Source of the DNA: an uncultured Staphylococcaceae bacterium
GTDB lineage: Bacteria; Bacillota_I; Bacilli_A; RFN20; CAG-826
DNA length: 57,267 nucleotides
Direction of reading: 5' to 3'
NCBI GenBank assembly: GCA_964562705.1
Contig: CAZLUI010000001.1
Location: forward strand, 28,543-85,809
Below the pieces are notes generated by a model. It worked only from the letters and a program-made list of their open reading frames with translations. It was not told where the DNA came from and did no database searches. Below are positions 12,732-30,298 of the stretch, piece after piece (positions within the stretch are counted from its first letter, which is position 1; every line of letters begins with the position of its first letter). Both the position numbers and the translations under genes were made by a program.

Positions 12732-12761
12732 AAATCCCTTGGAAATTCTAAGGGATTTTTT
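12732..12761 (+). terminator. Rho-independent terminator after the lipoprotein gene
   Basis: 9-bp stem AAATCCCTT / AAGGGATTT, 9-nt loop, T-run. Confidence 0.8.
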
Positions 12762-12856: not shown

Positions 12857-13417
12857 ATGGCGACAGGAATTATCTTGGCTGGTGGCGAAAGCCGACGTGC
12901 TAATACAAACAAAATGCTGCTTGAGATTTATGATAAGCCGCTTATTTTGCACACGATTGAAAACATGTCTCCTTTCGTTGAGAAGATTATTGTTGTCACT
13001 GGAAAATACCATGAGGAACTTAAACCCCTTTTGAAGGATGTTGAAGTTGTTTATAATGCGGATTATCAAAAAGGAATGTTTTCTTCTGTTCAGGCTGGTG
13101 TTAAGCATGCGGAAGGAAACTTTTTCATTTTTCCTGGTGATTGTCCATTTGTAAAAGCTTCTACTTTCAACGCTTTAATGGTTGGCTCGGATTTTTTAAT
13201 TCGCGTGCCTATGTATAAAGAAAAAACTGGTCATCCAACTTACTTCAATGCAAAAATGAAGGACAAAATATTGTCTGCTCCCACCGATTCAAATCTGCGA
13301 GTTCTAAGAGATGAAGTTGGGTTTGAAACCGTGGAAGTTAATGATCCAAATATCTTAAATGACATTGATACGATAAACGATTATCAGCAGATGATTAACA
13401 AACTTGAAAGGAATTAA
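12857..13417 (+). CDS. mocA: Molybdenum cofactor cytidylyltransferase (MocA/YgfJ family)
   Basis: N-terminal GIILAGGESRR..TNK nucleotidyltransferase motif, ~186 aa, a GDCPF segment and a C-terminal DIDT..DY, as in E. coli MocA. It sits ahead of Mo-hydroxylase genes. Confidence 0.8.
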   Translation: MATGIILAGGESRRANTNKMLLEIYDKPLILHTIENMSPFVEKIIVVTGKYHEELKPLLKDVEVVYNADYQKGMFSSVQAGVKHAEGNFFIFPGDCPFVKASTFNALMVGSDFLIRVPMYKEKTGHPTYFNAKMKDKILSAPTDSNLRVLRDEVGFETVEVNDPNILNDIDTINDYQQMINKLERN

Positions 13418-14205: not shown

Positions 14206-14657
14206 TGATCGTAAAATTTAAATTAAATGGTTTACCAGTTAGTTTTGATGTTAAACCTGGAGAATTCCTCCTTGATACTTTAAGAGAACACGGCGTTAAA
14301 TCGCTAAAGAAAGGTTGTGACGGCTCTGCTTGTGGTGTTTGTTCTCTCTTATTCGATGGACACCCAGTTTTATCTTGTTCACTTCTTTCACTCCGTTGTG
14401 AAGGCCATGAAATTACAACAGTTGAAGGCATACAAAGTGTCGCTAGTAAAATTGCGGAATGCTTTGCTAGTGAAGGTGCTGATCAATGCGGTTATTGCAA
14501 CTCTTCCTTCGCGTTAGTGATTCACGCTTTAAGCCAAGAACTCAAAAACCCAACTGACGAAGAAATTAAGAAATATATGGTTGGTAACCTATGCCGTTGC
14601 ACTGGCTATCAATCTCAAATTAAGGCAATTAAGAAATATTTAGGAGGGCTCAAATAA
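14205..14657 (+). CDS. [2Fe-2S] small subunit of a Mo-hydroxylase
   Basis: GCDGSACGVCS, QCGYC and CRCTGY cysteine motifs. TAATG coupling at both ends. Confidence 0.88.
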   Translation: MIVKFKLNGLPVSFDVKPGEFLLDTLREHGVKSLKKGCDGSACGVCSLLFDGHPVLSCSLLSLRCEGHEITTVEGIQSVASKIAECFASEGADQCGYCNSSFALVIHALSQELKNPTDEEIKKYMVGNLCRCTGYQSQIKAIKKYLGGLK

Positions 14658-16975
14658 TGAAGAAATTCAAAGTAGTTAATAACCTCACCCCTTCCCTCGA
14701 TGGTAAAGGCTTGATGATGGGCCGTCCTTATTACACCGATGATTTTGCGGATCAAAATTCGTTAATTATTAAGATTTTAAGAAGCCCACACGCTTTTGCA
14801 CATATCAAGAACATTGATGTTTCGGAAGCTGAAAAACTTGCCGGAGTTGAATGTGTTTTAACATATAAAAATGTTCCACATGTTTCTTTCTCCCGTGCAG
14901 GACAAGGCTATCCTGAACCATCGCCTCACGATAAATTCGTTTTGGATGAATATGTTCGTTATGTTGGTGATGAGGTCGCCGTTGTGGCAGCCGTTAATGA
15001 AGAAATCGCTCTTGAAGCTTTGAAACTAATCAAAGTGGAATACGAAGTTCTTGAGCCAATTTTAGATTTTGAAAAATCATATGAGAACAAAACTATCATC
15101 CATCCAGAAGATGGCATCATTGAAATGTTCCCGATTGGTTTTGAGCCAAAAAAGAATGTTGCTGCTGCCTATGAGATGCATGTTAATGATGTCGATGAAG
15201 TTTTCAAAAAATGTGATTATATTGTCGAAGAAACTTTCTATTCTCAAGCCCAAGCTCATGCGATGCTTGAGCCACATGCTTGCAATGCGCGTCTTGACGC
15301 TCATAATCGTTTGGTTATTTATTCAACAACTCAAACTCCTTACCACGTTCGTCGTATCATTGCGAAAACACTTGGTTTACCAACTGAGAAGATTCGGGTA
15401 ATTAAGCCACGTGTTGGCGGTGGTTTTGGTGGCAAACAAGCTTTCCACGGAGAGATGTTTGCATCCCTTGTTACTTTAAGAACAAATAAACCTTCCAAGT
15501 GTGTTTTCACGCGTGAAGAAGTATTTGGTTCATCTTATACTCGTCATCCTATGAGAATCACTATGAAAATCGGCGCAACAAAAGATGGCAAGATTCGTGC
15601 TATCGATTGTTCCGCTCTTTCCGATACTGGAGCTTATGGTGAACATTCGCTAACAGTCTTCATGATTGTTGGTTCTAAAGTATTACCTTTATATAACAAA
15701 GTTGACGCTGTTAGATTTGGTGGCAAAGTTGTTTATTCTAACCATGTTTCTGCTGGTGCCTATCGAGGCTATGGCGCGATTCAAGGCAACTACGCCTTAG
15801 AAGCGACCATTGATATTTTGGCGGAAAAGATGGGTGTTGATCCAATTAAACTCCGTGAAGATAATTCGATGCGTGAAAAAGAAACTTCTCCAATTTTTGA
15901 GATTATGGGCGAAGGAACAAAAGGCACTCCAATGATTATGGAAAGTTGCAAGCTTCCATATTGTATAAGTCGTGGTAAAGAACTTATTGGTTGGGATGAT
16001 AAATACCCAATGAAAAAAGTTGGACCACACACAATTAGATCAGTTGGTATGGCTATTGCTATGCAAGGCAGCGGAATTCCATTCCTTGATATGGGTAGCT
16101 GTTCCATCAAATTAAATGATGGTGGTTCTTACATGGTCACTGTTGGAGCAACCGATATTGGGCAAGGTTCCGACACCGTCATCGCTCAAATCGTGGCTGA
16201 AGAATTGTCGACCACAATTGATAAAGTTTTGATATATTCATCAGACACTGATTTAACTCCGTATGATTGCGGCGCTTACGCCTCATCAACCACCTATGTT
16301 AGTGGCAACGCTGCTTATCAAGCAGCTCACAAAATGCGCGAGAGACTTATTAGCGAAGCTGCTGAATTCTTAGAAGTTAAAGAAGATACAGTTGATTTCG
16401 ATGGTGTAAAGTTTGTTTCTGGCGATAAAGAAGTAACGTTGGATGATTTATCAACTAAACGTTTATATAACACAAATACCCATCAAATTGCAGTCACCGA
16501 AAGCTATCATGGTCATGTTTCTCCACCTCCATTCATGGCAGGTTATGCCGAAATTGAAATCGACACTGAAACATATGAATACAAAGTTTTAAATTATGTC
16601 AGCGTTGTTGACTGTGGCACAACTATTAACCCAGGCCTAGCAAAAGGTCAAGTTGAGGGGGGAATTATTCAAGGTTTAGGAATGGCAAGTTATGAAGAAG
16701 TAAAATATTCTCCAAAAGGCAAACTATTATCCAACACCTTTGATTCATACCATATTCCAACAACGATGGAAGTTAATAAATTAACAACTGAATTTGCGGA
16801 TTCTTATGAAATCAGTGGACCATTTGGTGCTAAATCGGTAGGAGAGATTGGTATTGATACTCCTCCAGCGATTATTTGCAATGCGATTTACAACGCTCTT
16901 GGCGTGAGAATTCACTCTCTGCCAATTACTCCAGAAAAAATCTACGAGGCCATGAAAGCAAAAGAAGGCAAATAA
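14657..16975 (+). CDS. Molybdopterin-binding large subunit, xanthine dehydrogenase/aldehyde oxidase family (XdhD-like, split from its Fe-S domain)
   Basis: RVGGGFGGKQ (15416-15439), AYRGYGAIQ and a C-terminal GAKSVGEIG (catalytic Glu). 772 aa. Confidence 0.88.
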   Translation: MKKFKVVNNLTPSLDGKGLMMGRPYYTDDFADQNSLIIKILRSPHAFAHIKNIDVSEAEKLAGVECVLTYKNVPHVSFSRAGQGYPEPSPHDKFVLDEYVRYVGDEVAVVAAVNEEIALEALKLIKVEYEVLEPILDFEKSYENKTIIHPEDGIIEMFPIGFEPKKNVAAAYEMHVNDVDEVFKKCDYIVEETFYSQAQAHAMLEPHACNARLDAHNRLVIYSTTQTPYHVRRIIAKTLGLPTEKIRVIKPRVGGGFGGKQAFHGEMFASLVTLRTNKPSKCVFTREEVFGSSYTRHPMRITMKIGATKDGKIRAIDCSALSDTGAYGEHSLTVFMIVGSKVLPLYNKVDAVRFGGKVVYSNHVSAGAYRGYGAIQGNYALEATIDILAEKMGVDPIKLREDNSMREKETSPIFEIMGEGTKGTPMIMESCKLPYCISRGKELIGWDDKYPMKKVGPHTIRSVGMAIAMQGSGIPFLDMGSCSIKLNDGGSYMVTVGATDIGQGSDTVIAQIVAEELSTTIDKVLIYSSDTDLTPYDCGAYASSTTYVSGNAAYQAAHKMRERLISEAAEFLEVKEDTVDFDGVKFVSGDKEVTLDDLSTKRLYNTNTHQIAVTESYHGHVSPPPFMAGYAEIEIDTETYEYKVLNYVSVVDCGTTINPGLAKGQVEGGIIQGLGMASYEEVKYSPKGKLLSNTFDSYHIPTTMEVNKLTTEFADSYEISGPFGAKSVGEIGIDTPPAIICNAIYNALGVRIHSLPITPEKIYEAMKAKEGK

Positions 16976-18282
16976 TGAACGATATTTCTTTAATTAATGG
17001 TTTGGTCTATTTAAACGATAAATGGCAACAAACGAACTTGTCTATTTTAGGCGAGAAGATTTCCTATATCGGACCAGAAATTAAAGAAGCAAAAGAAATG
17101 ATTGATTGCCAAGGATTAAAAATCATGCCTGGTTTAATTGATCCTCATGTTCATTTTGAACTTAATTGTGGCCGTTTAACTTCGGTTGATGATTTCTATT
17201 ATGGCAGTGTTGCAGCCGCTTATGGTGGAGTGACAACAATTATCGATTTCCTCGATCCAACTAGCAACGCATTAGATTTAGAAAAATCATATTTTGAACG
17301 TCTTGCTCTAGCTAAGAAATCAATTGTCGATTACCACATGCACGCTTGTATAAAGATGCCAAACGGTTCATTAGAAGAATATGTTAAAACAGTACTTAGA
17401 CTGGGCATGAAAACCATTAAACTTTTCACCACCTACTCCGATACTGGTCGAAGAACATATGACAAAGATATTATTGAATTATTGAAATTATCCCAAAAAT
17501 ATAAAATCATGCTTTTAGCCCACATTGAAGCGGATGACATGATTTCAATTAAGGATGAATTCACCTATAAAGATTTGCCAATTTCTCGTCCTGGTTTTTC
17601 TGAAACATTGGAAGCGTTAAAGCTGGCTTCCTATGTCCGCGAAAATGGTGGTTACTTATATATGGTCCATTGCTCAAGTGGTGAAACATTAAGACATTTA
17701 AAAGAAGAATACGCTGACATCCTTGGCAAGCATTTGTTCATAGAATCTTGTCCTCAATATTTTGTGTTTAATAATCAAGTCTTAGACGAGGAAAACGGCA
17801 AGTTATTTACTTTTGCTCCACCATTAAGAAGCGAAAGAGAAAGACAACTATTAGTTGCAAACTTTGATTTCCTAAATACAATTGGCACGGATCATTGTGC
17901 TTTTAATTCTAGCGACAAAGATTGGCCAACATTAGCCGGCTTTCCTCTTGGGGTTGGTGGCATTGAACATTCCTTCTCTCTTATGTATAAAAGATTTGGG
18001 GATAAGGTCATTGACAAAATGAGCAAAAACGTTGCAGTTTTAGAAGATTTCCCAACAAAAGGCCAATTAAAAGTGGGAATGGACGCCGATATATCAGTCT
18101 TTAAAGAAATGGATGACTATTTTGAACAAGCTGGTCATGGCAAATGCGACTATTCAATTTATGATGGTGTTCTTGGTAGTGGTCAATTTGTTCACACTCT
18201 TGTGCGAGGAAAGTTTGTTTTAAAGAATCGTCAAATAGTTAAACACGTCGGTAAAGAAATTATCTGTGGAGCAGACAAATGA
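16975..18282 (+). CDS. hyuA: Cyclic amidohydrolase, D-hydantoinase/dihydropyrimidinase family (HyuA/YgeZ-like)
   Basis: PGLIDPHVHF, GGVTTIIDF, KLFTTY (carboxylated-Lys position), AHIE, VHCSS, ESCPQY, APPLR and GTDHCAF. The start ATG 16975 overlaps the upstream stop; the track ORF from 16876 is an in-frame extension inside the previous gene. Confidence 0.88.
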   Translation: MNDISLINGLVYLNDKWQQTNLSILGEKISYIGPEIKEAKEMIDCQGLKIMPGLIDPHVHFELNCGRLTSVDDFYYGSVAAAYGGVTTIIDFLDPTSNALDLEKSYFERLALAKKSIVDYHMHACIKMPNGSLEEYVKTVLRLGMKTIKLFTTYSDTGRRTYDKDIIELLKLSQKYKIMLLAHIEADDMISIKDEFTYKDLPISRPGFSETLEALKLASYVRENGGYLYMVHCSSGETLRHLKEEYADILGKHLFIESCPQYFVFNNQVLDEENGKLFTFAPPLRSERERQLLVANFDFLNTIGTDHCAFNSSDKDWPTLAGFPLGVGGIEHSFSLMYKRFGDKVIDKMSKNVAVLEDFPTKGQLKVGMDADISVFKEMDDYFEQAGHGKCDYSIYDGVLGSGQFVHTLVRGKFVLKNRQIVKHVGKEIICGADK

Positions 18283-19580
18283 AAGCATTAATTAATGTCC
18301 GTATTTATGATTATCAAAATTATATCGAAAATGGATATGTTGTTTTTGACAAGCAAATTTGTGAAGTAGGCTCAATGGATAAGTTTGTTGATAAGGGCTA
18401 TGAAATTATTGATGGCAAAGGACAATTGTTACTTCCATCTTTCGTGTGTGCTCACGCTCATATATATTCAATATTTGCGCGCGGTTTAGCTCTTCCGTTT
18501 AACCCTAAATGTTTCTTAGATATTTTGACTCAGATGTGGTGGAAAATCGATGCGAAGATTTCCAATAATATTACATACTATTCCGGCATCGCTGCCGCTA
18601 GCGAATTTTTGCTAAATGGTGTGACTACAGTCATTGATCACCATGCTTCTGGAACTGATATTATTGGTTCTTTGACTGAACTCAAAAAGTCGGTTTGTGA
18701 TGTAGCGCATATGCGTGGCATTTTCTGTTTTGAGACCAGCGATAGATACAATATCAATGAATGCATTAAAGAGAACATTTCTTATTATCTCGATAATCAT
18801 AGTCACGATACATGTGGTCTATTTGGTATGCATGCCTCAATGTCTCTCTCAGATGAGACTTTATCAAAGGTGGCAAAAAATCAAAAAGATTGTCCGCTCC
18901 ATGTTCATGTGGCGGAATCAAAAGATGATGAGGTTGATTCTTTAAATAAATATTCAACATCAATCATCTCTAGGTTTGATCGTTTTGGCCTTCTTAAAAA
19001 AGATTCCCTTATTGTGCACGGAGTTGCATTAAGCGATGCTGAACTTGATATCCTTGCAAAACGTGATGTTTATCTTGTCGTTAATACCACGAGTAACATG
19101 AATAATGCGGTAGGTTTACCGAATGTGAAGAATTATTTAAACCACAATCTCAAAGTTATGGTTGGCAACGATGGACTAAGTTCAAATATGGCAAGTGAAT
19201 TTATGAATGTCTATTACACATCCCATTTATTGAATGCCTCTGCTAAAGAACTCAATCTTGGTGATGTTATCAATATGATCAATAACGCTTATGAATATGT
19301 TTCGAAGCGTCTTGATATAAAACTTGGAAAGATTGAATCTGACTACGAAGCTGATTTCATGCTCGTGAAATATATTCCTTTTACCTCAATGGATAAGAAT
19401 AATGCTTTTGGTCATGTTTTCTTTGGTTTATTTCCTTGCTTTAAGCCCTGTGATGTTTATTCACACGGAAATCTTGAAGTGAGCAATTATCAATTAACTA
19501 ACAAAAAACTTCTTTCTGAATTAAAACATGCAAATAAAGTAGCAGATGAATTATGGGCCCTAGTTAAGGAGGAAAAATAA
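18279..19580 (+). CDS. ssnA: SsnA-family amidohydrolase (chlorohydrolase/deaminase-like)
   Basis: Matches E. coli SsnA as recalled: P.FVC.H.H.YS...RG, LWW..D and G.T.VIDHHAS....GSL. ATGA overlap with hyuA. Confidence 0.82.
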   Translation: MKALINVRIYDYQNYIENGYVVFDKQICEVGSMDKFVDKGYEIIDGKGQLLLPSFVCAHAHIYSIFARGLALPFNPKCFLDILTQMWWKIDAKISNNITYYSGIAAASEFLLNGVTTVIDHHASGTDIIGSLTELKKSVCDVAHMRGIFCFETSDRYNINECIKENISYYLDNHSHDTCGLFGMHASMSLSDETLSKVAKNQKDCPLHVHVAESKDDEVDSLNKYSTSIISRFDRFGLLKKDSLIVHGVALSDAELDILAKRDVYLVVNTTSNMNNAVGLPNVKNYLNHNLKVMVGNDGLSSNMASEFMNVYYTSHLLNASAKELNLGDVINMINNAYEYVSKRLDIKLGKIESDYEADFMLVKYIPFTSMDKNNAFGHVFFGLFPCFKPCDVYSHGNLEVSNYQLTNKKLLSELKHANKVADELWALVKEEK

Positions 19581-19582
19581 CA

Positions 19583-20677
19583 ATGGACATCAAAACAAAG
19601 TTTGACGGATTAGAACTTGCTAATCCACTTATGCCAGCCGCTGGACCTCTCGTAGGTGACGCTGAGAAGATGCTGTGGCTTGAAAAGGAAGGCTGTGGCG
19701 CAATTGTGTCAAAAACAATTTCAACCAAAGACGCCCACATACCTCATCCTTGCATTTACGGCGACAAAGATTACATTATGAACTGTGAACTTTGGACTGA
19801 ATATTCCAAAGAGAAATGGATTAATGAATTTTTACCGGAATTTAAAAAAGGTAGTGATGGCAGACCATTAATTATCTCCGTTGGTTATAGCAAGGAAGAT
19901 ATGGCCGTTCTGATTCCTTTACTTGATAAGTTTGCCGACGCTTTCGAAGTGTCAACTCACTATGTCGGTAATGACTTATCAGAAATCGGCAGAACAGTGG
20001 CGATGATTCGCTCCTTAACAAAAAAACCAATATACATGAAGATTTCGGCTCATATGCCTGATCCAGAAGGATTTGCAAAAACAATCAAAGCTAATGGTGC
20101 CTCTGGTGTCGTGGCAGTTAATTCTCTTGGACCAAGTATGAAGATTGATATTGCTTCTCGTTCAATTATCTATGGAAACTCCAAAGGTTTTGCTTGGACA
20201 AGTGGACCATATATTAAAAATATTGCATTAGCAACTGTCTATACAATTAAACAAGCTGAACCATCTTTAACCGTTATTGGTGTTGGTGGTGTTCAAAGTG
20301 CCGATGATGTCATTGAATTTTTACTTGCTGGCGCTTCTGGAGTGCAAATGCTCTCTGCCGCCATGCTAAGAGGTAAAGGCTTATATCGTAAAATTATTGC
20401 TGATTTACCAAACGCTTTAGCAAAATATGGTTTTAAGTCAGTTCAAGAAGTTATTGACACTCATCTAGTAAATCACGCTGTATTTGGTAAAGGCGATACT
20501 CCAAAACTTGAAAAAGAAAAATGTATTAAATGTGGTACATGTGAAAAAGTTTGCCCTTATTTTGCAATTGGAATGAAAGATGGACCAGTCTTTGATGCCA
20601 AGAAGTGCTTCCGTTGTGGCTTATGTGTTTCAAAATGTCCAACTAAAGCATTGTCATATAAGAAAGTGGAAGAATAA
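19583..20677 (+). CDS. Orphan PreA/DHOD-like flavoprotein with a C-terminal 2x[4Fe-4S] ferredoxin domain
   Basis: DHOD-type N-terminus (GLELANPLMPAAGPL), FMN phosphate loop (IGVGGVQSADDVIEFLLAGASGVQ), CIKCGTCEKVCP and CFRCGLCVSKCP. The canonical S-C-P catalytic motif is replaced by FEVSTHYVG (STH at 19952-19960). No PreT-like partner is adjacent. Confidence 0.75.
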   Translation: MDIKTKFDGLELANPLMPAAGPLVGDAEKMLWLEKEGCGAIVSKTISTKDAHIPHPCIYGDKDYIMNCELWTEYSKEKWINEFLPEFKKGSDGRPLIISVGYSKEDMAVLIPLLDKFADAFEVSTHYVGNDLSEIGRTVAMIRSLTKKPIYMKISAHMPDPEGFAKTIKANGASGVVAVNSLGPSMKIDIASRSIIYGNSKGFAWTSGPYIKNIALATVYTIKQAEPSLTVIGVGGVQSADDVIEFLLAGASGVQMLSAAMLRGKGLYRKIIADLPNALAKYGFKSVQEVIDTHLVNHAVFGKGDTPKLEKEKCIKCGTCEKVCPYFAIGMKDGPVFDAKKCFRCGLCVSKCPTKALSYKKVEE

Positions 20678-22788
20678 TGCTCGCTTATAAAAGCAAATAC
20701 CCAACCTCGACGCCTAAAGTTGACCAAGAAATAAAAGTCAAAGGGGAAGCAAAATATACCGATGACATTTCTATGCCTGGTATGCTTTTTGCACGCAGTC
20801 TTAGAAGTAACATATGCCGTGGTGAAATAGTGAATGTCAATGTTCCTAAATTGCCAGATGGATATTTCTATGTCGACTCCAAAGATATTAAAGGTGAAAA
20901 TGTCACCAATATTATCTTTTCGGATTGGCCAGTTTTTGCTGAGAAAAAGATTAATTTCTTCGGTGAGACAATCGCTTTAATTGTCGGACCTGATAAACGT
21001 GTTATTGATCAAATTATTAAAGAGATTGTTGTCGAATATAAGGAAGAGACACCGGTATTTGAATTATCACAAAGCTACATTCATAAGTCATTTACCAAAG
21101 GCAATCTTGAAGAAGCTAAGAAAAAAGCGGTCAAAGTGGTTGAAGAAGAATATTCAACTGGCTATCAAGAACAAGCTTATTTAGAACCACAAGGCATGCT
21201 AGTTTATTTTGACGAAGAAAATAAGCTTACTTGCATTGGTTCCATGCAGTGCCCTTGGTATGTGCATCGCGCGGTTATGCGTGCCTGTGCCTTAAATAAT
21301 GAACAAGTAAGAGTTATCCAACCTGCTGTTGGTGGAGCCTTTGGAGGTAAGGAACATTATCCTTCCCTTATCGGGGCTGAACTTGCAACCGCTTTAATCA
21401 AAATTAAAAAGCCAATTAAGATGTGTTTTGAAAGAACTGAGGATTTAATGTTTTCAACTAAACGCCATCCTTCACTTAGTAAATATAAAGCCTACATTGA
21501 TAAAGACAACAATATTCTAGGAATGGATGTTAGCGTCAAACTTAACGGCGGAGCATATAAAGGTTGTAGTGGCGTTGTTTTAAGCCGTGCCTTAATTGCT
21601 TCAGCTAATGTTTATCGCATTCCATCCTTAAATGTTGTTGGTGATGTTTATATGACTAACACCGTGCCAACCGCTGCCTTTAGAGGCTTTGGCTCGCCGC
21701 AGACAATATTCGCTATGGAAATGTTCATCCATCATATTGCTAAAGCGCTTAACATTGATCCTCTTGAACTGAGAATGAAATATCTCGTCAAGAAAGGTGA
21801 TATCACAACCAATAGCGGTGAGTTCCATGATCCAATTATCATGCCTGAGCTTATTGAAGAAGCGATGAAGATGAGCGATTACAAACGCAAGATTGTCGAA
21901 TATTCAAAACCAGGTTGCAACAAAGGCATTGGCATGAGTTTCTTCTTACATGGTTGTGGTTTTACCGGCAATGGCGAATCAGACATTATCAAAGCCAAAG
22001 TTAGATTAAATAAAGATGAGAATAACATTGTTCGTGTTTATGCTTCCAGTGTGGATATGGGTCAAGGCAACAAGACAACCTTAAAACGAATTGTCGCCAA
22101 GAATCTCGATATTCCAAACGAACAAGTAATTTTTGATAATCCTGATACGAGCGTCGTTCCTGATAGCGGTCCAACAGCCGCTAGCAGAACTATCATCATT
22201 GTTGGTTTCTTGATGGAAAAAGCTGCTAAAAACCTCAAAAAAATCTGGGAAGATGGCAAGAAGCAAGAAATTATAGAACCATATGTTGGACCTAGTTATA
22301 TTCACTGGGATGAAGAGAAGATGCAAGGCGATGCTTATCCATCTTATTCTTGGGGCGTCAATATTGTCGAAGTTGAATTTGATCCAATTTCCTATCAAAT
22401 TGATGTGAAACATATTTGGTCTACTTACGATGTTGGTCGTGTCGTTGATGAGCGAATTGCGATTGGTCAAGCTGATGGCGGAATTATCCAAGGTATTGGC
22501 TATGGCTATATGGAAAATATGAACTGCCGCGCTGGCAAGTTTGTGCAAAAATCCCTTGGTGATTATATTGTGCCTACCTCAATGGATGTGCCTTTGATGG
22601 AAACAAAATTCATTGATAATCCATTTATTTATGGTGCCAATGGTGCGAAAGGAATGGGCGAACTTACTCTTGTTGGTGGAGCCCCGGCTGTTGCATTAGC
22701 AATCGAGAATGCAATCGGTGTTAAAGTTAACGATATCCCGTGCAGTCCTGAATATATTATGGAGCGAATAAAAAATGGCAAGAATTAA
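20677..22788 (+). CDS. Molybdopterin-binding large subunit, xanthine dehydrogenase-like (703 aa)
   Basis: AVGGAFGGKE (Glu codon at 21352-21354, the position of the purine-binding Glu of XDH), TAAFRGFGSPQ (XDH Arg motif) and GAKGMGELT (catalytic Glu). Confidence 0.88.
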   Translation: MLAYKSKYPTSTPKVDQEIKVKGEAKYTDDISMPGMLFARSLRSNICRGEIVNVNVPKLPDGYFYVDSKDIKGENVTNIIFSDWPVFAEKKINFFGETIALIVGPDKRVIDQIIKEIVVEYKEETPVFELSQSYIHKSFTKGNLEEAKKKAVKVVEEEYSTGYQEQAYLEPQGMLVYFDEENKLTCIGSMQCPWYVHRAVMRACALNNEQVRVIQPAVGGAFGGKEHYPSLIGAELATALIKIKKPIKMCFERTEDLMFSTKRHPSLSKYKAYIDKDNNILGMDVSVKLNGGAYKGCSGVVLSRALIASANVYRIPSLNVVGDVYMTNTVPTAAFRGFGSPQTIFAMEMFIHHIAKALNIDPLELRMKYLVKKGDITTNSGEFHDPIIMPELIEEAMKMSDYKRKIVEYSKPGCNKGIGMSFFLHGCGFTGNGESDIIKAKVRLNKDENNIVRVYASSVDMGQGNKTTLKRIVAKNLDIPNEQVIFDNPDTSVVPDSGPTAASRTIIIVGFLMEKAAKNLKKIWEDGKKQEIIEPYVGPSYIHWDEEKMQGDAYPSYSWGVNIVEVEFDPISYQIDVKHIWSTYDVGRVVDERIAIGQADGGIIQGIGYGYMENMNCRAGKFVQKSLGDYIVPTSMDVPLMETKFIDNPFIYGANGAKGMGELTLVGGAPAVALAIENAIGVKVNDIPCSPEYIMERIKNGKN

Positions 22789-23257
22789 TTTTATTTTAAA
22801 TCATCAAGCTTTATCAATTGATGTCGATCCAAGTAAGAGATTGCTGGATTTTATCCGTGATGATATGCACTTAAGTGGCACTAAAGAAGGCTGTGGTGAA
22901 GGTAGCTGCGGCGCTTGCGTTGTCCTTATGGATGGTTATTCAGTTAACTCATGTCTTATTCCAATGGCTAATGTTGTTGGCCATGAAATAATCACTATTG
23001 ACGGTTTCAAAAAGACTGAAGAATTTAAAGTCTTGTCGGAAGCATTTGCTGAAGAAGGTGGTTCCCAATGTGGATTCTGTACCCCAGGAATGATTATCGC
23101 TTCTCAATCTTTACTGTCTCATAACCCTCACCCAAGCGAAGAAGAGATTCGCCACGCTTTAGCGGGTAACCTCTGCCGTTGCACTGGTTATCAAGCCATT
23201 ATTCATGCTGTTCAACTTGCTAGCAAAATCGGAGGAAAATTATGGGAGAAAAAGTAA
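22775..23257 (+). CDS. [2Fe-2S] small subunit of the second Mo-hydroxylase
   Basis: GCGEGSCGACV, QCGFCTPG and CRCTGY. 14-nt overlap with the large-subunit gene. Confidence 0.9.
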   Translation: MARINFILNHQALSIDVDPSKRLLDFIRDDMHLSGTKEGCGEGSCGACVVLMDGYSVNSCLIPMANVVGHEIITIDGFKKTEEFKVLSEAFAEEGGSQCGFCTPGMIIASQSLLSHNPHPSEEEIRHALAGNLCRCTGYQAIIHAVQLASKIGGKLWEKK

Positions 23258-24084
23258 TTCCAAGCTCTTTAGCTGAAGCATTAGATTTCTTGTCTACTCA
23301 CGATTGCAATATTGTGGCAGGTGGTAGTGACATAATGCTTCAAAAGAAAAATACTGCTGGACTGCTTCCACACTTTGATAAGGATGTTCTCTTTATTTCC
23401 AATCTAAGAGAACTTCATTATGAAAGAAAGGAAGATGATAGTGTCCATATCGGAGCAACGATGACTCTAGAAGAAATTCTTGACCACACAATTACTCCTC
23501 AAGTATTGAAAGATTGTCTTTCGGAATTGGCCTCAAGCAACATTCGCCATTTTGCGACTTTGCCTGGCAATATTGCCAATGCCTCACCAGCAGGCGATAC
23601 AATTGTGGTCGAAATCTTACTTGACGCAATGGTTAAATTGACTTCAAAAACTGGTTCTCGCTATGTGAAAGTAGAAGACTTTGTTAAAGGCGTTCGAAAA
23701 ATTGATTTACATAACGATGAATTGATCGAAGAAGTTATATACCCAAGCAATGATTATGATGTGATTAAATGGTTCAAAGTAGGTTCTCGCAAAGCAGAAT
23801 CAATTTCGAAAGTATCATTTGCCGGCGCATACAAAATTGAAGGTGGCAAAATCAAATCAATTTCGATTGCATTTGGTTCTGTGTTTATGAAGGCTATTCG
23901 CTCCCATGAGCTCGAAAAAGAACTCATCGGCATGAGCTTAAAGGAGCTAAGTTCTTCTATTGAAGAATTTGTGTCCAAATATAGCAATGTCATCAGTCCA
24001 ATTGATGACCAAAGATCGAACAAAACTTATCGCCGCAATGTGGCCGAAAACATTGTTCGTGAATTCTTAAAAGAAATTAAATAA
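23242..24084 (+). CDS. FAD-binding subunit of the second Mo-hydroxylase
   Basis: VAGGSDIMLQ and IRHFATLPGNIANASPAGD (CO-DH flavoprotein family). RBS GGAGG at 23230-23234. Confidence 0.85.
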   Translation: MGEKVIPSSLAEALDFLSTHDCNIVAGGSDIMLQKKNTAGLLPHFDKDVLFISNLRELHYERKEDDSVHIGATMTLEEILDHTITPQVLKDCLSELASSNIRHFATLPGNIANASPAGDTIVVEILLDAMVKLTSKTGSRYVKVEDFVKGVRKIDLHNDELIEEVIYPSNDYDVIKWFKVGSRKAESISKVSFAGAYKIEGGKIKSISIAFGSVFMKAIRSHELEKELIGMSLKELSSSIEEFVSKYSNVISPIDDQRSNKTYRRNVAENIVREFLKEIK

Positions 24085-24095: not shown

Positions 24096-25340
24096 ATGAA
24101 TTATATTAAAGGCTATCGTTGCACGATTTGCCACAAATTCTTTCGCCCTGATGAAGTGGATTTAACCTGTCCTATCTGTGGGGAAAAAGGCATTCTTGAT
24201 ATTGAATATGATTACGATGCTTTGAAGAAAGTATTAACCAAAGAATACTTCGCCAAAAATTCTAATTATTCAATGTGGAGATACACTCCAATAATGGGCA
24301 TTGAACCAGACCATGTCGATGAAATGTTACGCGTTGGCTGGACACCATTATATGAAGCGAGGAACCTTGAAAAGATTTTTGGCATTAAGAAGCTCTACAT
24401 CAAAGATGATGGACTTAATCCGAGTGGTTCAAGTAAAGATAGAGCGAGTGGTGTTGCTGTCTTAAAAGCAATTGAAGCAGGTGCGAAAACTATCGCTTGT
24501 TCCTCAACTGGAAATGCAGCCTCATCATGCGCTTGTCAAGCAGCTCATATGGGTTTAAAGGCGGTTATCTTTGTTCCAAAGAGAGCTCCAATTGGCAAGG
24601 TTACTCAAATTAGTCTTTACGGTGCAACTTTAATAAGTGTCGATGGAGACTATAAAGCGGCTTTCTCTTTATCAAAGGAAGCTATTAAGAAATACGGCTG
24701 GTACAACCGTAATGCTGCAATCAATCCATTTATGATTGAGGGCAAGAAAACTGTATCAATGGAGATCGCTGAACAACTTCATTTCCAACCAACAGACTGG
24801 GTTGCTGTTAGTGTCGGAGATGGTTGTACAGTTGGAGGAGTTTACAAAGGTTTTGCGGAGTTTTTTAAACTCGGTTTAATCGATAGAATTCCTCGTATAC
24901 TCGGTGTTCAATCAACTGGATGTGAGCCATTTGTTATTGCAAGTCACAATAATGAGTCTCTCAAAGAAGCCGATGAAAACACAATTGCTGACTCAATCGC
25001 TGTCGGCATTCCAAGAAACCCTATTAAGGCTCTTAATGCAATTAAGTTATCTAATGGGGTATGGATTTCAATACCTGATGATGATATTATTAAAGCAATG
25101 GCTTTACTTGGCAGAACTGAAGGCATCTTCGGTGAACCTGCCGGAGTAGCCGCTATCGCTGGTATTAAGAAAGCGATTGAAGAAGGAATCATTAAGAAAG
25201 ATGAGACTGTGACTATGATTGTGACAGGCAACGGACTTAAAGATCCATTGAATGCCCAAAAGGCAATCACCCCACCAACCCTTATGAAACCAAGCTTAGA
25301 TGACTTGGACAAATTTTTGAAAGAAAAAGGAGCAATTTAA
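24096..25340 (+). CDS. Threonine synthase-like fold-type-II PLP enzyme with an N-terminal CxxC...CxxC zinc ribbon
   Basis: YRCTICHKFF...LTCPICG zinc ribbon. LYIKDDGLNPSGSSKDRA (ThrC-type PLP-lysine motif), SSTGNAASS and a Gly-rich loop. RBS GGAGG. Confidence 0.7.
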   Translation: MNYIKGYRCTICHKFFRPDEVDLTCPICGEKGILDIEYDYDALKKVLTKEYFAKNSNYSMWRYTPIMGIEPDHVDEMLRVGWTPLYEARNLEKIFGIKKLYIKDDGLNPSGSSKDRASGVAVLKAIEAGAKTIACSSTGNAASSCACQAAHMGLKAVIFVPKRAPIGKVTQISLYGATLISVDGDYKAAFSLSKEAIKKYGWYNRNAAINPFMIEGKKTVSMEIAEQLHFQPTDWVAVSVGDGCTVGGVYKGFAEFFKLGLIDRIPRILGVQSTGCEPFVIASHNNESLKEADENTIADSIAVGIPRNPIKALNAIKLSNGVWISIPDDDIIKAMALLGRTEGIFGEPAGVAAIAGIKKAIEEGIIKKDETVTMIVTGNGLKDPLNAQKAITPPTLMKPSLDDLDKFLKEKGAI

Positions 25341-25341
25341 T

Positions 25342-26712
25342 ATGTCAAAAATCCCATTTGGACCAACGTATGATGAGATGCTAAATCCATCACACCAAGA
25401 TCCTAAAACCAGAGCAGCAGCTCTAAAGGCTCTTAAAGAAAATGAGCTTGATCCAGTTAACTTATTCAACATTACTTGGAAAAATGAAAAGAATGAAGTT
25501 AACAAAATCGTTCTTCCAAAAGAACTAACCGGTGTTGACGCAAACATCGTTGTTCTTCTTGGAAAGTATTTCCCATCAGGTTCCCACAAAGTCGGACCTG
25601 CCTATGCTACATTGATGGAAGGCTGTGTTGATGGAGAAATTATTCCAGGTAAACACACCATTCTTGGTCCATCAACTGGTAACTTTGGCATTGGCGTTTC
25701 CTATATTACAAACTTGATGAAGTATGATGCAATTGTCATCATGCCAGATAACATGTCTAAAGAAAGATATGAACGCATCAGCAAATATGGCGCCAAACTC
25801 GATTTGACACCAGGCAGCGAATCTGACGTTATTCTCACTCTTGAAAGAACATATGAACTCAAGAAAGACCCAAAGAATCGCACTCTTGCTCAATTTGAAT
25901 TATTACCAAACTACCGTTTCCATCGTCATGTTACAGGTAATTCTTGTATCGAAGCCGTTAAAGGAATCGGTAATGGTCGTGTTGCTGCCTTCTGCTCCGC
26001 TCCAGGCAGTGCTGGTACATTAGCCGCTGGTGATCAAATTAAAGCTGTTTTCCCAGAATGTAAAATTGTCGCTTTGGAACCACACGAATGTTCAACTTTG
26101 ACCAATGGTGGTCTTGGACAACACCGTATTGAAGGCATCGGCGACAAGATGATTACTCTTATTCATAACGTTCTCACCACAGACTTCATCACCCAAATTA
26201 TTGATGAAGATTGTGTTCGTGGTTTAGCTGTCATTCACGAAGGTACCAAAGTTCTTGAACAACATGGTATTAGCAAGAAAGTTGCCGAATCTATGATCAA
26301 TCTATTTGGTGTTTCTGGTATCTGCAATATTCTCGGTGCAATCAAGATGGCAAAATACCTCAAACTAGGACCAAATGATAACGTCGTTACCATTGCTACT
26401 GATAGCTTTGATAGATATCCATCAGTTATGGATGATCTCCACAAACGCGAACTCGAAGTTACCCCAAACGTTCTTGAAAGATGGTACGAAGATGTCTTCG
26501 AAAACGCTGATACAAAGTACGTATTAGACACTCGTGGCGATGCTGCAAAAGAAGTGTTGTTCAAACAAAAAGAACACGATTGGCTCAAATTCGGATACAA
26601 ACAATCATATCTTGACGAGATGAGAAAACCAGAGTTCTGGGAAGATGAATATAACAAAATTCATGATTATGATAAGAAAATTATCGCTTTACGTGGAAAG
26701 GAAGTTAAATAA
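25342..26712 (+). CDS. Fold-type-II PLP-dependent enzyme (PALP superfamily; OrtB 'lyase/thiolase'- or TrpB/DpaL-like), 456 aa
   Basis: [13 protein letters not shown] (candidate PLP lysine; compare DpaL FKMLGGAYA and TrpB GSHK), [13 protein letters not shown] and SAPGSAGT. No OrtA-like small ORF is adjacent. Subfamily uncertain. Confidence 0.6.
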
Positions 26713-27935
26713 TGAAAGTCTCCTTTGAAGAAGTATTAAAGTTTGCCGAAGCATATCAAAAAGATATGACGAAGTTCCTTCGTGATATGATCGCTATCCC
26801 AAGCGAATCATGTGACGAAAAGAAAGTAGTTCTCCGTATCAAAGAAGAAATGGAAAAGGTTGGTTTTGATAAAGTTGTCATCGATAAGATGGGCAATATC
26901 CTTGGCTATGTTGGCCATGGTAAACATCTCATCGCAATGGACGCTCACATCGATACCGTCGGTATTGGTGAAATCAAAAACTGGTCCTTTGACCCATACA
27001 AAGGTTATGAAGATGACATCCATATCGGTGGACGTGGCGCTTCTGACCAAGAAGGTGGCATGGCTTCAATGGTTTATGCTGCTAAAATTATCAAAGATTT
27101 ACATCTAGAAGATGACTATACTCTCCTCATTACTGGCACTGTCCAAGAAGAAGACTGTGATGGCCTTTGCTGGAAGTACATTATTGAAGAAGATAAGATT
27201 CGTCCAGAATTTGTTGTTTCAACCGAACCAACAAGTTGCCAAATTTATCGTGGCCATCGCGGACGCATGGAAATCAAAGTTGATGTTCGCGGTATTTCCT
27301 GCCATGGTTCTGCTCCAGAACGTGGCGTGAACGCAATTTACAAAATGGCACCAATCATTGAACAAATTGAAAAGCTCAATGAAAACGGACTTGCCTATGA
27401 TCCATTCTTAGGAAAAGGCACTGTCACTATTTCCCAAATCTTCCACAAATCACCAAGCCGCTGCGCAGTGGCTGATGGTTGCTGGATCAGCTTGGATCGT
27501 CGCCTTACTATCGGTGAAAACGATAAGACATCAATCGCTGAAATTAAAGCATTGCCAGCAGTCAAAGCTGCCAAAGCCGAAGTCTCAATGTATATGTATG
27601 AACGTCCATCCTATACTGGACTTAACTACCCAATCGAATGTTACTTCCCAACTTGGGTCATTCCAGAGGGTTCAGTCTACTGTCAATCAATGAAGGAAGG
27701 TTATCAAAAATTATTCGGTAAAGATCCTGTTATTGATAAATGGACATTCTCAACAAACGGAGTTTCCATCATGGGCCGTTATGGCATTCCATGTATCGGA
27801 TTTGGTCCAGGTGATGAGAAAGAGGCTCATGCCCCAAATGAAAAGACCAGAAAACATGACTTGGTTATATGTGCAGCATTATATGCTGTCTTGCCAGCCA
27901 TGTACTTAGAACATCTTAATAAAGGAGAAAAATAA
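26712..27935 (+). CDS. ygeY: YgeY-family M20 peptidase/deacylase ('selenium metabolism-linked hydrolase')
   Basis: Near-collinear with E. coli YgeY as recalled: [71 protein letters not shown] and EPT.CQ.YRG.RGRMEI. Confidence 0.88.
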
Positions 27936-27937: not shown

Positions 27938-28948
27938 ATGGATAAAATTGAACCAAGATTTGCCGGTCGTCACTTGATTACCTTAGAAGACTTCTCTAAG
28001 GAAGAAATCGACTACATGCTCAAAGTGTCACATGAACTAAAAGATGCTTTCTACCGCAACGAACCAACTCAATGGCTCGTTGGAAAAACTGGTTTCTTAA
28101 TGTTCTTTGAACAATCAACTAGAACTAGAAACTCATTTGAATCAGGCATGGCTCAATTAGGTGGCCACGCTACATTCCTCGATACATCAATGATGCAAAT
28201 ATCTCATGGTGAATCTGCTAAGGATACAGCCGTTATTCTCTCTAGCTTTGGTCATATGATTGCTTGCCGTTATTGCAACTGGGGACTAGGCAACAAATAT
28301 ATTCGCGAAATGGCGAAATATTCAACTGTCCCAGTCATCAACTTACAATGTGATATTTATCACCCTATGCAAGCTCTTGCTGATTTAATGACTATCGAAG
28401 ATGAATTTAAAAAGACCAAACATTTAAAGGTCTCTGTTATTTGGGCTATGGCCACAACTCACAAGAAACCGATTTCTGTTCCAGTTAGCCAAGTTCTTCT
28501 TTTCCCTCGTTATGGCATCGATGTAACACTTGCCTATCCAGAAGGATACGATTTACCTGATTGGGTTATCGAAAAAGCTCGTAAAAACGCTGCCGAAAAT
28601 GGTGGTTCATTAACTATTACTCACGACATGGATGCTGCTTATAAAGATGCTGATGTTGTCTTCCCAAAGAACTGGGGTTCATGGGTTACTAACCAATCAA
28701 CAACCGTTGTCGATGATGCACTTTTAGCACTCAAGACTTGGAAATGCACACCAGATAAAATGGCACTTGCTAAACCAACGTGCCGTTATATGCACGCTCT
28801 TCCAGCCGACCGTGTCAATGAAGTTGTCGATGAGGTTATCGACGGACCACAATCAGTTATCTACCAAGAAGCTGAAAACAGAATTCATACTGCAAAAGCT
28901 GTTATGGCATTGTTTGTTCACGATAAACTTGAATCTGATCGCCGCTAA
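27938..28948 (+). CDS. ygeW: YgeW-family (knotted) carbamoyltransferase
   Basis: STRTR carbamoyl-P motif. NLQCDIYHPMQALADL..., KPISVP, GIDVTLAYPEGYDL and YKDADVVFPKNW parallel E. coli YgeW (NLQCDIDHPTQSMADL, KPLSVP, GMDVTLAHPEGYDL, FKDADIVYPKSW). Confidence 0.85.
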   Translation: MDKIEPRFAGRHLITLEDFSKEEIDYMLKVSHELKDAFYRNEPTQWLVGKTGFLMFFEQSTRTRNSFESGMAQLGGHATFLDTSMMQISHGESAKDTAVILSSFGHMIACRYCNWGLGNKYIREMAKYSTVPVINLQCDIYHPMQALADLMTIEDEFKKTKHLKVSVIWAMATTHKKPISVPVSQVLLFPRYGIDVTLAYPEGYDLPDWVIEKARKNAAENGGSLTITHDMDAAYKDADVVFPKNWGSWVTNQSTTVVDDALLALKTWKCTPDKMALAKPTCRYMHALPADRVNEVVDEVIDGPQSVIYQEAENRIHTAKAVMALFVHDKLESDRR

Positions 28949-28961: not shown

Positions 28962-28995
28962 AAGCAAGTTCTATATTGGACTTGCTTTTCTTTTT
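28962..28995 (+). terminator. Rho-independent terminator ending the mocA...ygeW operon
   Basis: 8-bp stem AAGCAAGT / ACTTGCTT, 10-nt loop, T-rich tail TTTTCTTTTT. Confidence 0.75.
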
Positions 28996-29020: not shown

Positions 29021-30298
29021 ATGAAAAGTATTAAGAATTTGTTTCGTATTGGACGTGGTCCAAGTTCATCTCACACAATCGGTCCTGACCGGGCTGCTAA
29101 GTTTTTAAAAGCTAAATATCCTAATGACATTAAAATTGAAGTGATATTATATGGCTCACTTGCTTTCACAGGTAAAGGGCACTTGACAGACAAGGTCATT
29201 CTTGATGTTTTCTTGCCTACTCCAACTCATATAACTTTCGACTTTAAAACGAAAGTAAGTTTTCCAAATACTTTCGATATTACTTTCTATTTTGCGGATC
29301 GTGATCCAATCACAAAAAGAGTACTTTCTCTTGGTGGTGGTGCTATATCAATATCTGATGAATTGGAAGAGAATGAAGAGGATGTTTATCCAGAAAAGAG
29401 TTTCGCTGAAGTTGTTGAATTTTGTCACACTAACAATCTCACTTTGCCTGAATATGTTGAACATTATGAAGGCAAAGAAATGTTTGAATACTTAAAAACT
29501 GTTTGGAATCAAATGACTGACACAATTCATGCCGGATTAACAAATCGTGGACTTTTGCCAGGAAAATTGAAAATCCAACGTCGAGCAGCAAGCTTTTTAA
29601 TACCTTCCCATATGAAAGAATCTAGCTTTTCTCGCACCAACCGAATAATCTCCGCTTTCGCCTTTGCAACCAATGAAGAAAATGCTGCTGGTGGTGTAGT
29701 TGTTACTGCTCCTACTTGTGGCAGCAGTGGCACTCTTCCTGCTGTATTAATGGAAATGGTTGACCGTTACGAATTCACCGATAAAGAAATTATTAACGCA
29801 ATAGCGGTTGCCGGTGTTATTGGCAACATTGTTAAATCTAACGGTTCAATATCTGGTGCAGAAGCTGGCTGCCAAGCTGAAATTGGTACTGCATGTTCTA
29901 TGACAGCCGCGGCTGCTGCCTATTTAAAAGGCTTCAACATTGATCAAATTGAATACGCAGCTGAAGCAGCTTTGGAACATTCACTTGGTCTAACTTGTGA
30001 CCCAGTTGAAGGTTATGTTCAGATTCCGTGCATTGAAAGAAATGCCGTGGCTGCTATAAAAGCATTGACTGCCACTTATTTAGCAGAATATGCCTCCTCA
30101 TCTCATCGCGTTAGTTTTGACACTATTGTCCAAACAATGTTAGTAACTGGTAAAGATATGAAGAAAAAATACCGTGAAACAAGCAAAGGTGGTCTTGCGG
30201 TTGATTTTGTAAAAAGTGAACGAAAAGCTCGTAAGAGTGCTGAAGAAAAAAAGAAAGCCTTAAAGGCAAAAGCTAACGAGAAGAAAGGAGAACAATAA
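29021..30298 (+). CDS. sdaA: L-serine ammonia-lyase, Fe-S dependent, single-chain form, with a Lys-rich C-terminal extension
   Basis: FRIGRGPSSSHTIGP, TAPTCGSSG, GAEAGCQAEIG and LGLTCDPV..YVQIPCIERNA. The start is taken at ATG 29021 (MKSIKNLF); the TTG at 28976 lies inside the terminator. The tail is KSERKARKSAEEKKKALKAKANEKKGEQ. Confidence 0.88.
   Translation: MKSIKNLFRIGRGPSSSHTIGPDRAAKFLKAKYPNDIKIEVILYGSLAFTGKGHLTDKVILDVFLPTPTHITFDFKTKVSFPNTFDITFYFADRDPITKRVLSLGGGAISISDELEENEEDVYPEKSFAEVVEFCHTNNLTLPEYVEHYEGKEMFEYLKTVWNQMTDTIHAGLTNRGLLPGKLKIQRRAASFLIPSHMKESSFSRTNRIISAFAFATNEENAAGGVVVTAPTCGSSGTLPAVLMEMVDRYEFTDKEIINAIAVAGVIGNIVKSNGSISGAEAGCQAEIGTACSMTAAAAAYLKGFNIDQIEYAAEAALEHSLGLTCDPVEGYVQIPCIERNAVAAIKALTATYLAEYASSSHRVSFDTIVQTMLVTGKDMKKKYRETSKGGLAVDFVKSERKARKSAEEKKKALKAKANEKKGEQ

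Follow-up and report, generated by a model that had tools for sequence, protein, structure and literature searches.

The 57,267-nt stretch of DNA analysed here (the window; GenBank assembly GCA_964562705.1, contig CAZLUI010000001.1, positions 28,543 to 85,809 of the forward strand) comes from an uncultured Staphylococcaceae bacterium. It contains, within an operon for purine breakdown, two adjacent genes for pyridoxal phosphate (PLP) enzymes of fold type II. Both lie on the plus strand, as do all features below unless stated otherwise. The first, PLP1 (24096-25340), encodes a 414-aa protein derived from threonine synthase (ThrC), and the second, PLP2 (25342-26712), a 456-aa protein from an uncharacterised clade of the CysK/beta-substituted alanine synthase (BSAS) superfamily. 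A preliminary description, made from the sequence alone, had placed two PLP enzymes directly before ygeY and read a lysine motif in each. Both open reading frames (ORFs) were found at these positions and both are strong PALP proteins (PF00291, E = 3.7e-76 for PLP1 and 4.3e-21 for PLP2), with the motifs SGSSKDRA (PLP lysine K114) in PLP1 and SGSHKVGPAYA (PLP lysine K83) in PLP2. A strong ribosome-binding site (AAGGAGG) precedes the ATG of PLP1 by 7 nt. The pair forms genes 11 and 12 of a 14-gene operon of ~16 kb that runs from mocA to a carbamoyltransferase gene and is bracketed by terminator-like hairpins (12732-12758 and 28962-28987). The gaps PLP1/PLP2, PLP2/ygeY and ygeY/carbamoyltransferase are 1, −1 and 2 nt, and no small ORF lies between the genes, in agreement with the earlier remark that an OrtA-like small subunit is missing.

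The operon is a cluster for the reductive (2,8-dioxopurine) uric-acid pathway in which all steps but YgeX/DpaL are encoded, in order. This pathway was published in 2025 with DpaL/YgeX as the terminal enzyme and leads from urate through isoxanthine, dihydro-isoxanthine, ureidomethylhydantoin, 2,3-diureidopropionate, a mono-ureido compound and 2,3-diaminopropionate (DAP) to pyruvate (Li et al. 2025; Liu et al. 2025). In E. coli and C. sporogenes the terminal position belongs to DpaL/YgeX, and ygeX mutants are reported to accumulate DAP (Liu et al. 2025). As in the published clusters, an XdhD-type molybdenum enzyme, SsnA, HyuA, YgeY and carbamate kinase are present, together with a UacX-type reductase as in C. 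difficile (role of UacX after Li et al. 2025) and a carbamoyltransferase. All are in the one operon save the carbamate kinase, which is YqeA-like (50% identical) and encoded divergently (11053-11991, minus strand). MocA (12857-13417) is followed by a first xanthine dehydrogenase (XDH)-family enzyme (13420-16975), whose molybdenum subunit is 37% identical to E. coli XdhD. Next come the HyuA-like cyclic amidohydrolase (16975-18282), the SsnA aminohydrolase (18279-19580; 32% identical to E. coli SsnA, NF005540 333 bits with a cut-off of 444) and the UacX-type reductase (19583-20677), which combines a DHODH-like domain (PF01180) with a ferredoxin domain for two [4Fe-4S] clusters (Fer4). A second XDH-family enzyme (20677-24084) precedes PLP1. 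After PLP2 stands YgeY (26712-27935), the M20 hydrolase of the ureido step, which scores 690 bits with TIGR03526 (cut-off 321) and shares 70% identity with E. coli YgeY. SsnA and the carbamoyltransferase score below their equivalog cut-offs; they are syntenic counterparts nonetheless. Compared with the published clusters, the window lacks YgeX, has an ornithine carbamoyltransferase (OTC)-like enzyme in place of YgeW or UacY, and adds a second complete XDH-family enzyme, the two PLP enzymes and a flanking serine/phosphoserine module. No DpaL homologue was found in the 57-kb window, where the best tblastn match of E. coli YgeX is PLP1 itself (26% identity over 176 aa).

PLP1 aligns across the whole catalytic core with the short bacterial threonine synthases of Aquifex, M. 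tuberculosis, T. thermophilus and B. subtilis. The lysine motif KDR, the loop STGN and a GNGLKD at the C-terminus are common to both. Threonine synthases are also its nearest solved relatives (2zsj, E = 4e-64). It passes the broad thrC model TIGR00260 (209.7 vs 167.1 bits) but stays below the specific ThrC equivalogs PRK08197 (277 vs 303), PRK05638 (217 vs 421) and PRK06381 (184 vs 266). PRK08197 and PRK05638 are models of ThrCs that bear a zinc ribbon and match the PLP1 N-terminus. There, the four-cysteine ribbon of the preliminary description is indeed present, with a spacing of x12 rather than x17 (C9xxC12-x12-C25xxC28), and all four cysteines are invariant in 74 orthologues.

The active site sets PLP1 apart from bona fide threonine synthases. 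T88, S155, R160 and N188 (T. thermophilus numbering) are invariant in five solved ThrCs and are said to hold the phosphate of O-phosphohomoserine; in PLP1 they correspond to A141, A208, M213 and D242. Numbering follows the T. thermophilus chain as aligned by HMMER, where K61 coincides with the PLP lysine and so confirms the register. A141, A208 and D242 are invariant in the 74 orthologues, the R160 position is L, S, V or T in relatives and never basic, and the same losses recur in PLP1-family members only 35-40% identical. The family also changes GNAGN to GDGC and gains invariant R205, D299 (ATAI to ADSI), R307 and C244. Moreover, unlike a threonine synthase in a biosynthetic context, PLP1 sits in a catabolic purine operon, and a search of the window and of 4.46 Mb of related loci detected no ThrA (hom) or ThrB homologue. 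Judged by its active-site residues, PLP1 thus appears not to be a bona fide threonine synthase. The replacements A141, A208, D242 and D299, together with the loss of Arg160, suggest a rebuilt and partly acidic distal pocket, into which the 3-amino group of DAP, or another cationic beta-substituent, would fit.

PLP2 resembles CysK and other beta-substituted alanine synthases (cystathionine beta-synthase, SbnA, beta-cyanoalanine synthase and the O-ureidoserine synthase DcsD) in fold and in core catalytic positions. In a Foldseek search with its AlphaFold2 model (pLDDT 80, pTM 0.87), the top matches were beta-cyanoalanine synthase and CysK (TM 0.74-0.81 on the target; for 3vc3 and 8sru, E = 4e-15 and TM 0.76), and only CysK/BSAS-type folds were returned. 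In an alignment with E. coli CysK and CysM, equivalents of the lysine, the Asn loop (PSTGNF), Gln143, the Gly-rich loop and the pyridine-nitrogen residue (Ser273) are kept. This conserved CysK-type core makes beta-replacement through a stable aminoacrylate the expected chemistry. PLP2 differs from the BSAS enzymes in scoring below every curated cut-off (cysK 134 bits vs 351, cysKM 132 vs 344, CysM 86 vs 413). It reaches no named family cut-off, and neither do full-length distant members of its family. Its lysine motif reads SHK-VGP in place of SVK-DR, and it has extensions of ~60 aa at the N-terminus and ~95 aa at the C-terminus relative to CysK, family motifs of its own (FPxGx-type, GIGDK, IHN) and an insertion ahead of the GxSG loop. 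Within the cluster, PLP2 shows the highest conservation, with 72-92% identity across orders and 41% of its positions invariant across 80 orthologues; a search of 1.8 billion cluster representatives retrieved 119 clusters at E < 1e-30.

Several other readings of PLP2 were tried and dropped. The GSHK motif had suggested a resemblance to TrpB; no TrpB model matched at E ≤ 1e-3, and the fold search gave CysK/BSAS-type matches only. A basic residue equivalent to CysM Arg210/211 was sought; the aligned positions are E264 and G265, and a role for K269 was dropped. Apparent domain fusions of PLP2-like proteins proved to be a tandem plant CysK artefact (P0300) and an unrelated call of an ABC ATPase fusion (P0298), while the long PLP2-like proteins P0269, P0317 and P0358 are frameshifted high-GC sequences, and no real fusion was found among the long representatives. 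The preliminary description had also likened the 456-aa protein to OrtB. The OrtB model NF040741 gives no match to PLP2 and 52 bits vs 550 on PLP1, scores that lend no support to a thiolase/OrtB function for the pair.

With DpaL/YgeX (EC 4.3.1.15), the two proteins share the PLP fold type II, the neighbourhood of ygeY, carbamoyltransferase and carbamate kinase, and an association with YheO-type regulators. They are not its orthologues: the DpaL model PRK08206 gives 59 bits for PLP1 and 24 bits for PLP2 (cut-off 276), and the DpaL signatures FKxLGG, TDGNHGRG and VQDTAWEGY are missing from both in an alignment with 10 DpaLs. Two proteins stand in for one, and their distribution is largely alternative to that of DpaL, with some genomes holding all three.

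To define the genomic context of the family, a genome scan with PLP2 yielded 80 species-genome loci (72-92% identity) out of at least 549 confirmed relatives. PLP1 was present in 78 of these 80 loci, ygeY in 77 and a carbamoyltransferase gene in 73; dpaL was found in none. They include Bacilli, ‘Erysipelotrichaceae’ rumen metagenome-assembled genomes (MAGs), Izemoplasmatales, Acholeplasmataceae, a Desulfitobacterium and a Clostridium. The association of the pair with ygeY is kept where the gene order is shuffled (loci L034, L042, L065 and L068), as in hyuA-carbamoyltransferase-PLP2-carbamate kinase-PLP1-ygeY in L034, and in such loci the pair tracks ygeY and the carbamoyltransferase gene rather than the XDH genes. 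A scan with a second subfamily, PLP2b (~490 aa; 36-44% identical to the window PLP2 and homologous end to end), gave 79 loci out of at least 599 confirmed relatives. In Lachnospiraceae and Oscillospiraceae, PLP2b forms a conserved gene pair with a PLP1 homologue of ~413 aa (PLP1b). This pair is usually divergent from, or inside, a ygeY-ygeW-yqeA cluster and lies beside a guanine deaminase gene and a Bmp-type ABC transporter. Candidate carriers in culture are Oscillibacter valericigenes Sjm18-20 (AP012044.1, about 2.649-2.670 Mb), Desulfitobacterium sp. Sab5 (NZ_CP172056.1, about 1.52-1.54 Mb) and Diplocloster agilis. Altogether, linkage to ygeY was seen in 77/80 and 31/79 loci and linkage to serC in 0/80 and 6/79 (within 10 kb), and synteny of the pair with ygeY extends over about 150 loci of several orders. 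The pair therefore stands where the preliminary description had expected DpaL, in an operon with ygeY, ssnA and hyuA and without dpaL, and its families partner ygeY across hundreds of species. No paper in the literature searched connects a threonine or cysteine synthase to ssnA or ygeY.

A YheO-type regulator with PAS and HTH_22 domains (~215 aa) is encoded next to dpaL or directly 5′ of PLP2b-PLP1b in L209 (3125-3769) and in 20 other loci of the PLP2b set, which makes it a candidate DAP-responsive regulator of the terminal step. Izemoplasmatales-type clusters carry an adenine deaminase gene between the XDH FAD-subunit gene and PLP1, as well as a gene of cytidine-deaminase fold that resembles guanine deaminase (L036, 3242-4951; L058, 7095-7574). 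In the Desulfitobacterium and in Clostridium UBA701, a YgeV-like sigma-54 activator is encoded between PLP2 and ygeY (L065, 11521-13335).

An arbitrary sample of ygeY loci was drawn with a DNA pattern for a YgeY motif and gave 119 chunks of 8 kb, 118 of them with ygeY, in which absences are soft. Among these 118, dpaL was present in 36, the PLP2 family in 25, the PLP1 family in 17, both PLP families in 13 and either in 29. The preliminary description had proposed a co-occurrence check: dpaL was found in 3/29 ygeY loci with PLP1 and/or PLP2 vs 33/89 without them (Fisher p = 0.006), a comparison that takes no account of phylogeny and is limited by the length of the chunks. When only the 33 loci with at least 4.5 kb 5′ of ygeY are considered, a test that the chunk length likewise limits, the difference is not significant (p = 0.68). 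The earlier idea of a non-orthologous replacement of DpaL accordingly holds insofar as the families are anti-correlated with dpaL; it is not a one-for-one exchange, as the two enzymes occur together and ~10% of the clusters keep dpaL.

A further feature of these loci is their link to serine metabolism. In the window, genes for Gdh (6164-7537), a DUF1015 protein (‘SerBK’, 7531-8757), SerC (8775-9863) and a SerA-like protein (9863-10999) form a tight same-strand block that abuts the carbamate kinase gene. In a metagenome scan centred on the carbamate kinase, this gdh-DUF1015-serC-serA flank was kept in every adequately flanked locus with a carbamate kinase at least 67% identical. Genes for Gdh and DUF1015 occurred in 25 metagenome loci, and the synteny can be followed down to identities of 58% for SerA and 43% for the FAD subunit. 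DUF1015 (‘SerBK’) has been proposed to be a serine kinase. In addition, serC and serA-like genes lie 3′ of PLP1b in six PLP2b loci (L204, L227, L206, L224, L235 and L245), in the order PLP2b-PLP1b-serC-serA-ygeY-ygeW in L204 and ygeW-PLP2b-PLP1b-serC-serA in L227 (gaps of 28, 4, 31 and 12 nt). No serC was seen among the 119 arbitrary ygeY chunks of 8 kb each. Beyond the operon, after a terminator-like hairpin with a 10-bp stem and a T run (28962-28987), the window carries an Fe-S L-serine dehydratase gene (sda, 29021-30298; TIGR00720 369 bits vs 345) as a separate transcription unit, which adjoins the cluster in the closest relatives only (11/80 loci).

Taken together, these observations strongly support PLP1 and PLP2 as pathway enzymes of a widespread, unrecognised variant of reductive urate breakdown, standing where DpaL stands elsewhere. 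On balance, and by no wide measure, we think it probable that they form a dedicated terminal module of the pathway that acts on DAP. From family placement, active-site residues and gene context we infer as follows what the pair acts on, how the work is divided and what is formed. DAP would be the simplest substrate, because the cluster retains a YgeY with 70% identity to the E. coli enzyme and a carbamoyltransferase to take off both ureido groups; the pair would then fill the DpaL slot by consuming the DAP that these two enzymes free from 2,3-diureidopropionate. Each PLP enzyme would form an external aldimine through its lysine (K114 in PLP1, K83 in PLP2), remove the alpha-proton and expel the beta-amino group to give a PLP-bound aminoacrylate. 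PLP1, with the ThrC phosphate pocket apparently rebuilt around Asp242 and Asp299 and without Arg160, would be the likelier DAP-binding eliminase, releasing aminoacrylate that decays to pyruvate and NH3. PLP2, whose CysK-type beta-replacement site is intact, would be the likelier enzyme to trap aminoacrylate with water or phosphate, yielding L-serine or O-phosphoserine. SerBK, SerC, the SerA-like protein and Gdh, and the L-serine dehydratase, could then carry the PLP2 products to 3-phosphoglycerate or pyruvate.

Within this framework, a conservative reading is that the two proteins would together do the work of DpaL, PLP1 being the better candidate for the elimination. A bolder reading, which we regard as possible but tentative, is a beta-replacement in which the ammonia of DAP is swapped for water or phosphate. 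The resulting L-serine or O-phospho-L-serine would drain through SerC and the SerA-like enzyme to 3-phosphoglycerate, with Gdh recycling 2-oxoglutarate and SerBK linking serine and phosphoserine. This would explain the in-operon serC and serA-like genes, the CysK-type chemistry of PLP2 and the retention of dpaL in some genomes. The preliminary description had considered a beta-replacement or a thiolytic step; the serC/serA-like genes lend indirect support to the former, and the OrtB scores speak against the latter.

Several observations weigh against a dedicated DAP module. About 10% of the clusters with the PLP pair also keep dpaL (L094, L203, L205, L209 and L210), and two related termite-gut Oscillospiraceae MAGs (L231/L277) have the arrangement PLP2b-dpaL-regulator-ygeY-ygeW without PLP1b, which indicates that PLP2 at least is no mere duplicate of DpaL. 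A single PLP enzyme, DpaL, is enough elsewhere, and the need for two is unexplained. Some 25 PLP2b loci, mostly from Christensenellaceae, have neither purine genes nor PLP1 within 10 kb, so that the PLP2 family may act outside urate clusters. At the residue level, both proteins have STGN where DpaL has TDGNH and thus lack an Asp120-type second base. This would fit poorly with a pathway that runs through D-DAP, as has been proposed (Liu et al. 2025). The invariant R205 and R307 of the PLP1 family could, as far as residues tell, rebuild an anion or phosphate site, the phosphate-binding role of the four replaced ThrC residues is a reported one, and the co-occurrence statistics leave shared ancestry aside. 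In the Christensenellaceae (L229, L234, L237, L247, L252 and others), the lone PLP2b gene follows a DUF3810 gene beside a block of DeoR, PfkB, GNAT, Pgi and TIM-barrel genes.

Among the rival explanations, one that we consider rather unlikely treats the pair as specialists for different forms of the substrate. PLP1 and PLP2 would both perform the net reaction of DpaL (to pyruvate and 2 NH3), one on D- and the other on L-DAP, or one on DAP and the other on mono-ureido albizziin, where the dual-base DpaL does both alone. The use of both isomers by E. coli DpaL, the unsettled stereochemistry of the pathway (Li et al. 2025; Liu et al. 2025), the absence from both proteins of the Asp of the TDGNH loop, and their co-occurrence in either gene order, as expected of partners, fit this view. 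It leaves unexplained the in-operon serC/serA-like genes, the PLP2b-dpaL loci without PLP1b and the lone Christensenellaceae PLP2b; urea or carbamate would also be a poor beta-leaving group, and ygeY and the carbamoyltransferase gene are still there to remove both ureido groups. Improbable, too, is a phosphoserine-dependent biosynthesis in which SerA and SerC make O-phosphoserine, from which PLP1 (with water) forms serine and PLP2 (with sulfide) cysteine in hosts without SerB or CysE; the location in a purine operon would in that case stem from joint regulation of nitrogen and amino-acid metabolism rather than from a step of urate breakdown. ThrC, cysteate synthase, O-phosphoserine sulfhydrylases and SbnA are users of phospho-amino acids, so both parent families include such enzymes, and the SbnA model gives 60-76 bits. 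The serC and serA-like genes next to PLP1b in six loci, the serine module flanking the window cluster and the cysS gene after sda point the same way. Against it stand the loss from PLP1 of the ThrC residues reported to bind phosphate, with an Asp at the N188 position, the far more frequent linkage of the pair to ygeY than to serC (77/80 and 31/79 vs 0/80 and 6/79), and Izemoplasmatales-type operons that place the pair between adenine deaminase and ygeY without serine genes; nor would such a biosynthesis account for the shared YheO-type regulator or the depletion of dpaL.

Two further possibilities fare worse. A housekeeping threonine synthase and a housekeeping cysteine synthase that lie in the operon by chance would agree with the passing TIGR00260 score of PLP1 and with public pipelines, which call PLP1 threonine synthase and PLP2 cysteine synthase. 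We judge this very improbable and the least tenable rival, given that PLP1 falls under all specific ThrC equivalog cut-offs and lacks four ThrC-invariant residues, that PLP2 reaches 134 vs 351 bits for CysK and has about 155 extra residues, and that synteny with ygeY spans about 150 loci of several orders with no hom or thrB nearby. Alternatively, the two molybdenum hydroxylases of the operon might obtain their labile selenium cofactor by way of selenocysteine that the pair makes or cleaves. Selenide can serve as a substrate of CysK-type enzymes, and by the model names of YgeY and SsnA the cluster lies in a ‘selenium-dependent molybdenum hydroxylase’ neighbourhood. In shuffled loci, however, the pair follows ygeY and the carbamoyltransferase gene, not the XDH genes; no selD, yqeB or yqeC was seen among the window proteins scanned, and dpaL depletion would remain unexplained, which makes a role in selenium handling extremely improbable.

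The reductive uric-acid pathway was worked out in 2025 only for DpaL-containing clusters, and surveys have used generic criteria for its last step: YgeX was scored by PF00291 alone (Li et al. 2025) and the terminal step by >25% identity to dpaL (Kasahara et al.). With such criteria, the variant is lumped with DpaL or missed. It is common nonetheless, with PLP1 and/or PLP2 in about a quarter of arbitrary ygeY loci compared with dpaL in about a third, and the two PLP2 subfamilies occur in at least 549 and at least 599 species-representative genomes, among them rumen and gut Bacilli, Lachnospiraceae, Oscillospiraceae and Izemoplasmatales. The three-carbon remnant of urate may be disposed of differently in these gut and rumen bacteria. 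If beta-replacement holds, anaerobic purine degradation would gain a new terminal branch that feeds glycolysis/gluconeogenesis directly, and with phosphate as the nucleophile one extra ATP would be conserved per urate, analogous to the phosphorolytic YgeW step. With serine or phosphoserine as the product, the predicted end products, the ATP yield and the cross-feeding by urate consumers would change, as would the gene markers for uricolytic capacity in microbiomes and for the design of uricolytic probiotics. Two large, uncharacterised PLP families also emerge from the analysis. One descends from ThrC and has a re-charged distal pocket, the other is a very strongly conserved CysK-like clade, and for both there is now an obvious candidate substrate.

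The last gene of the operon (27938-28948), taken for ygeW in the preliminary description, encodes instead a protein like OTC and putrescine carbamoyltransferase and no knotted YgeW. YgeW models give 180-189 bits vs cut-offs of 453-500 and identity to E. coli YgeW is 35%, compared with 259 bits vs 281 for the OTC model. Citrulline and other omega-ureido amino acids are substrates of OTC-type enzymes, so this transferase may phosphorolyse the 3-ureido group of an albizziin-like compound; if so, its activity would bear on the disputed order of ureido cleavage.

Two complete three-subunit XDH-family enzymes are encoded in the one operon, the first with FAD (13420-14205), 2Fe-2S (14205-14657) and molybdenum (14657-16975) subunits and the second with molybdenum (20677-22788), 2Fe-2S (22775-23257) and FAD (23242-24084) subunits; either could be the maker of 2,8-dioxopurine. 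The second molybdenum subunit (703 aa) is 24-25% identical to XdhA and XdhD and is syntenic with PLP1 in most relatives. For hyuA, the mechanically called start TTG 16876 is probably too early, and ATG 16975, which overlaps the stop codon of the first molybdenum subunit gene as TAATG, is preferred. Likewise, the likely start of sda, judged from the sequence context, is ATG 29021, which follows the hairpin and an extended −10 element (TGTGTATAAT), whereas the mechanical start TTG 28976 is probably too early.

Between the carbamate kinase gene and mocA lies a 207-aa ORF (12086-12709) that matches no Pfam or NCBIfam model and is possibly an unrecognised regulator. The hairpin 3′ of it (12732-12758, 12-bp stem) is the strongest terminator-like structure of the region. 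An Rfam search of the window returned no riboswitch or other RNA family. Close to the left end, positions 1422-3903 encode a PreT-like protein of 410 aa, which shares 29% identity with part of YgfK, and PreA (624 bits), the two components of a dihydropyrimidine dehydrogenase, which suggests that reductive pyrimidine breakdown is encoded nearby. The region downstream of sda (30298-57267), in which family-model scans covered some of the ORFs, contains cysS, rlmB, a gene for an Mrp/ApbC-type Fe-S carrier, nusG, a copper P-type ATPase gene, rpoB, rpoC, and fusA- and tuf-sized ORFs, so that the catabolic island abuts a core translation/transcription region.

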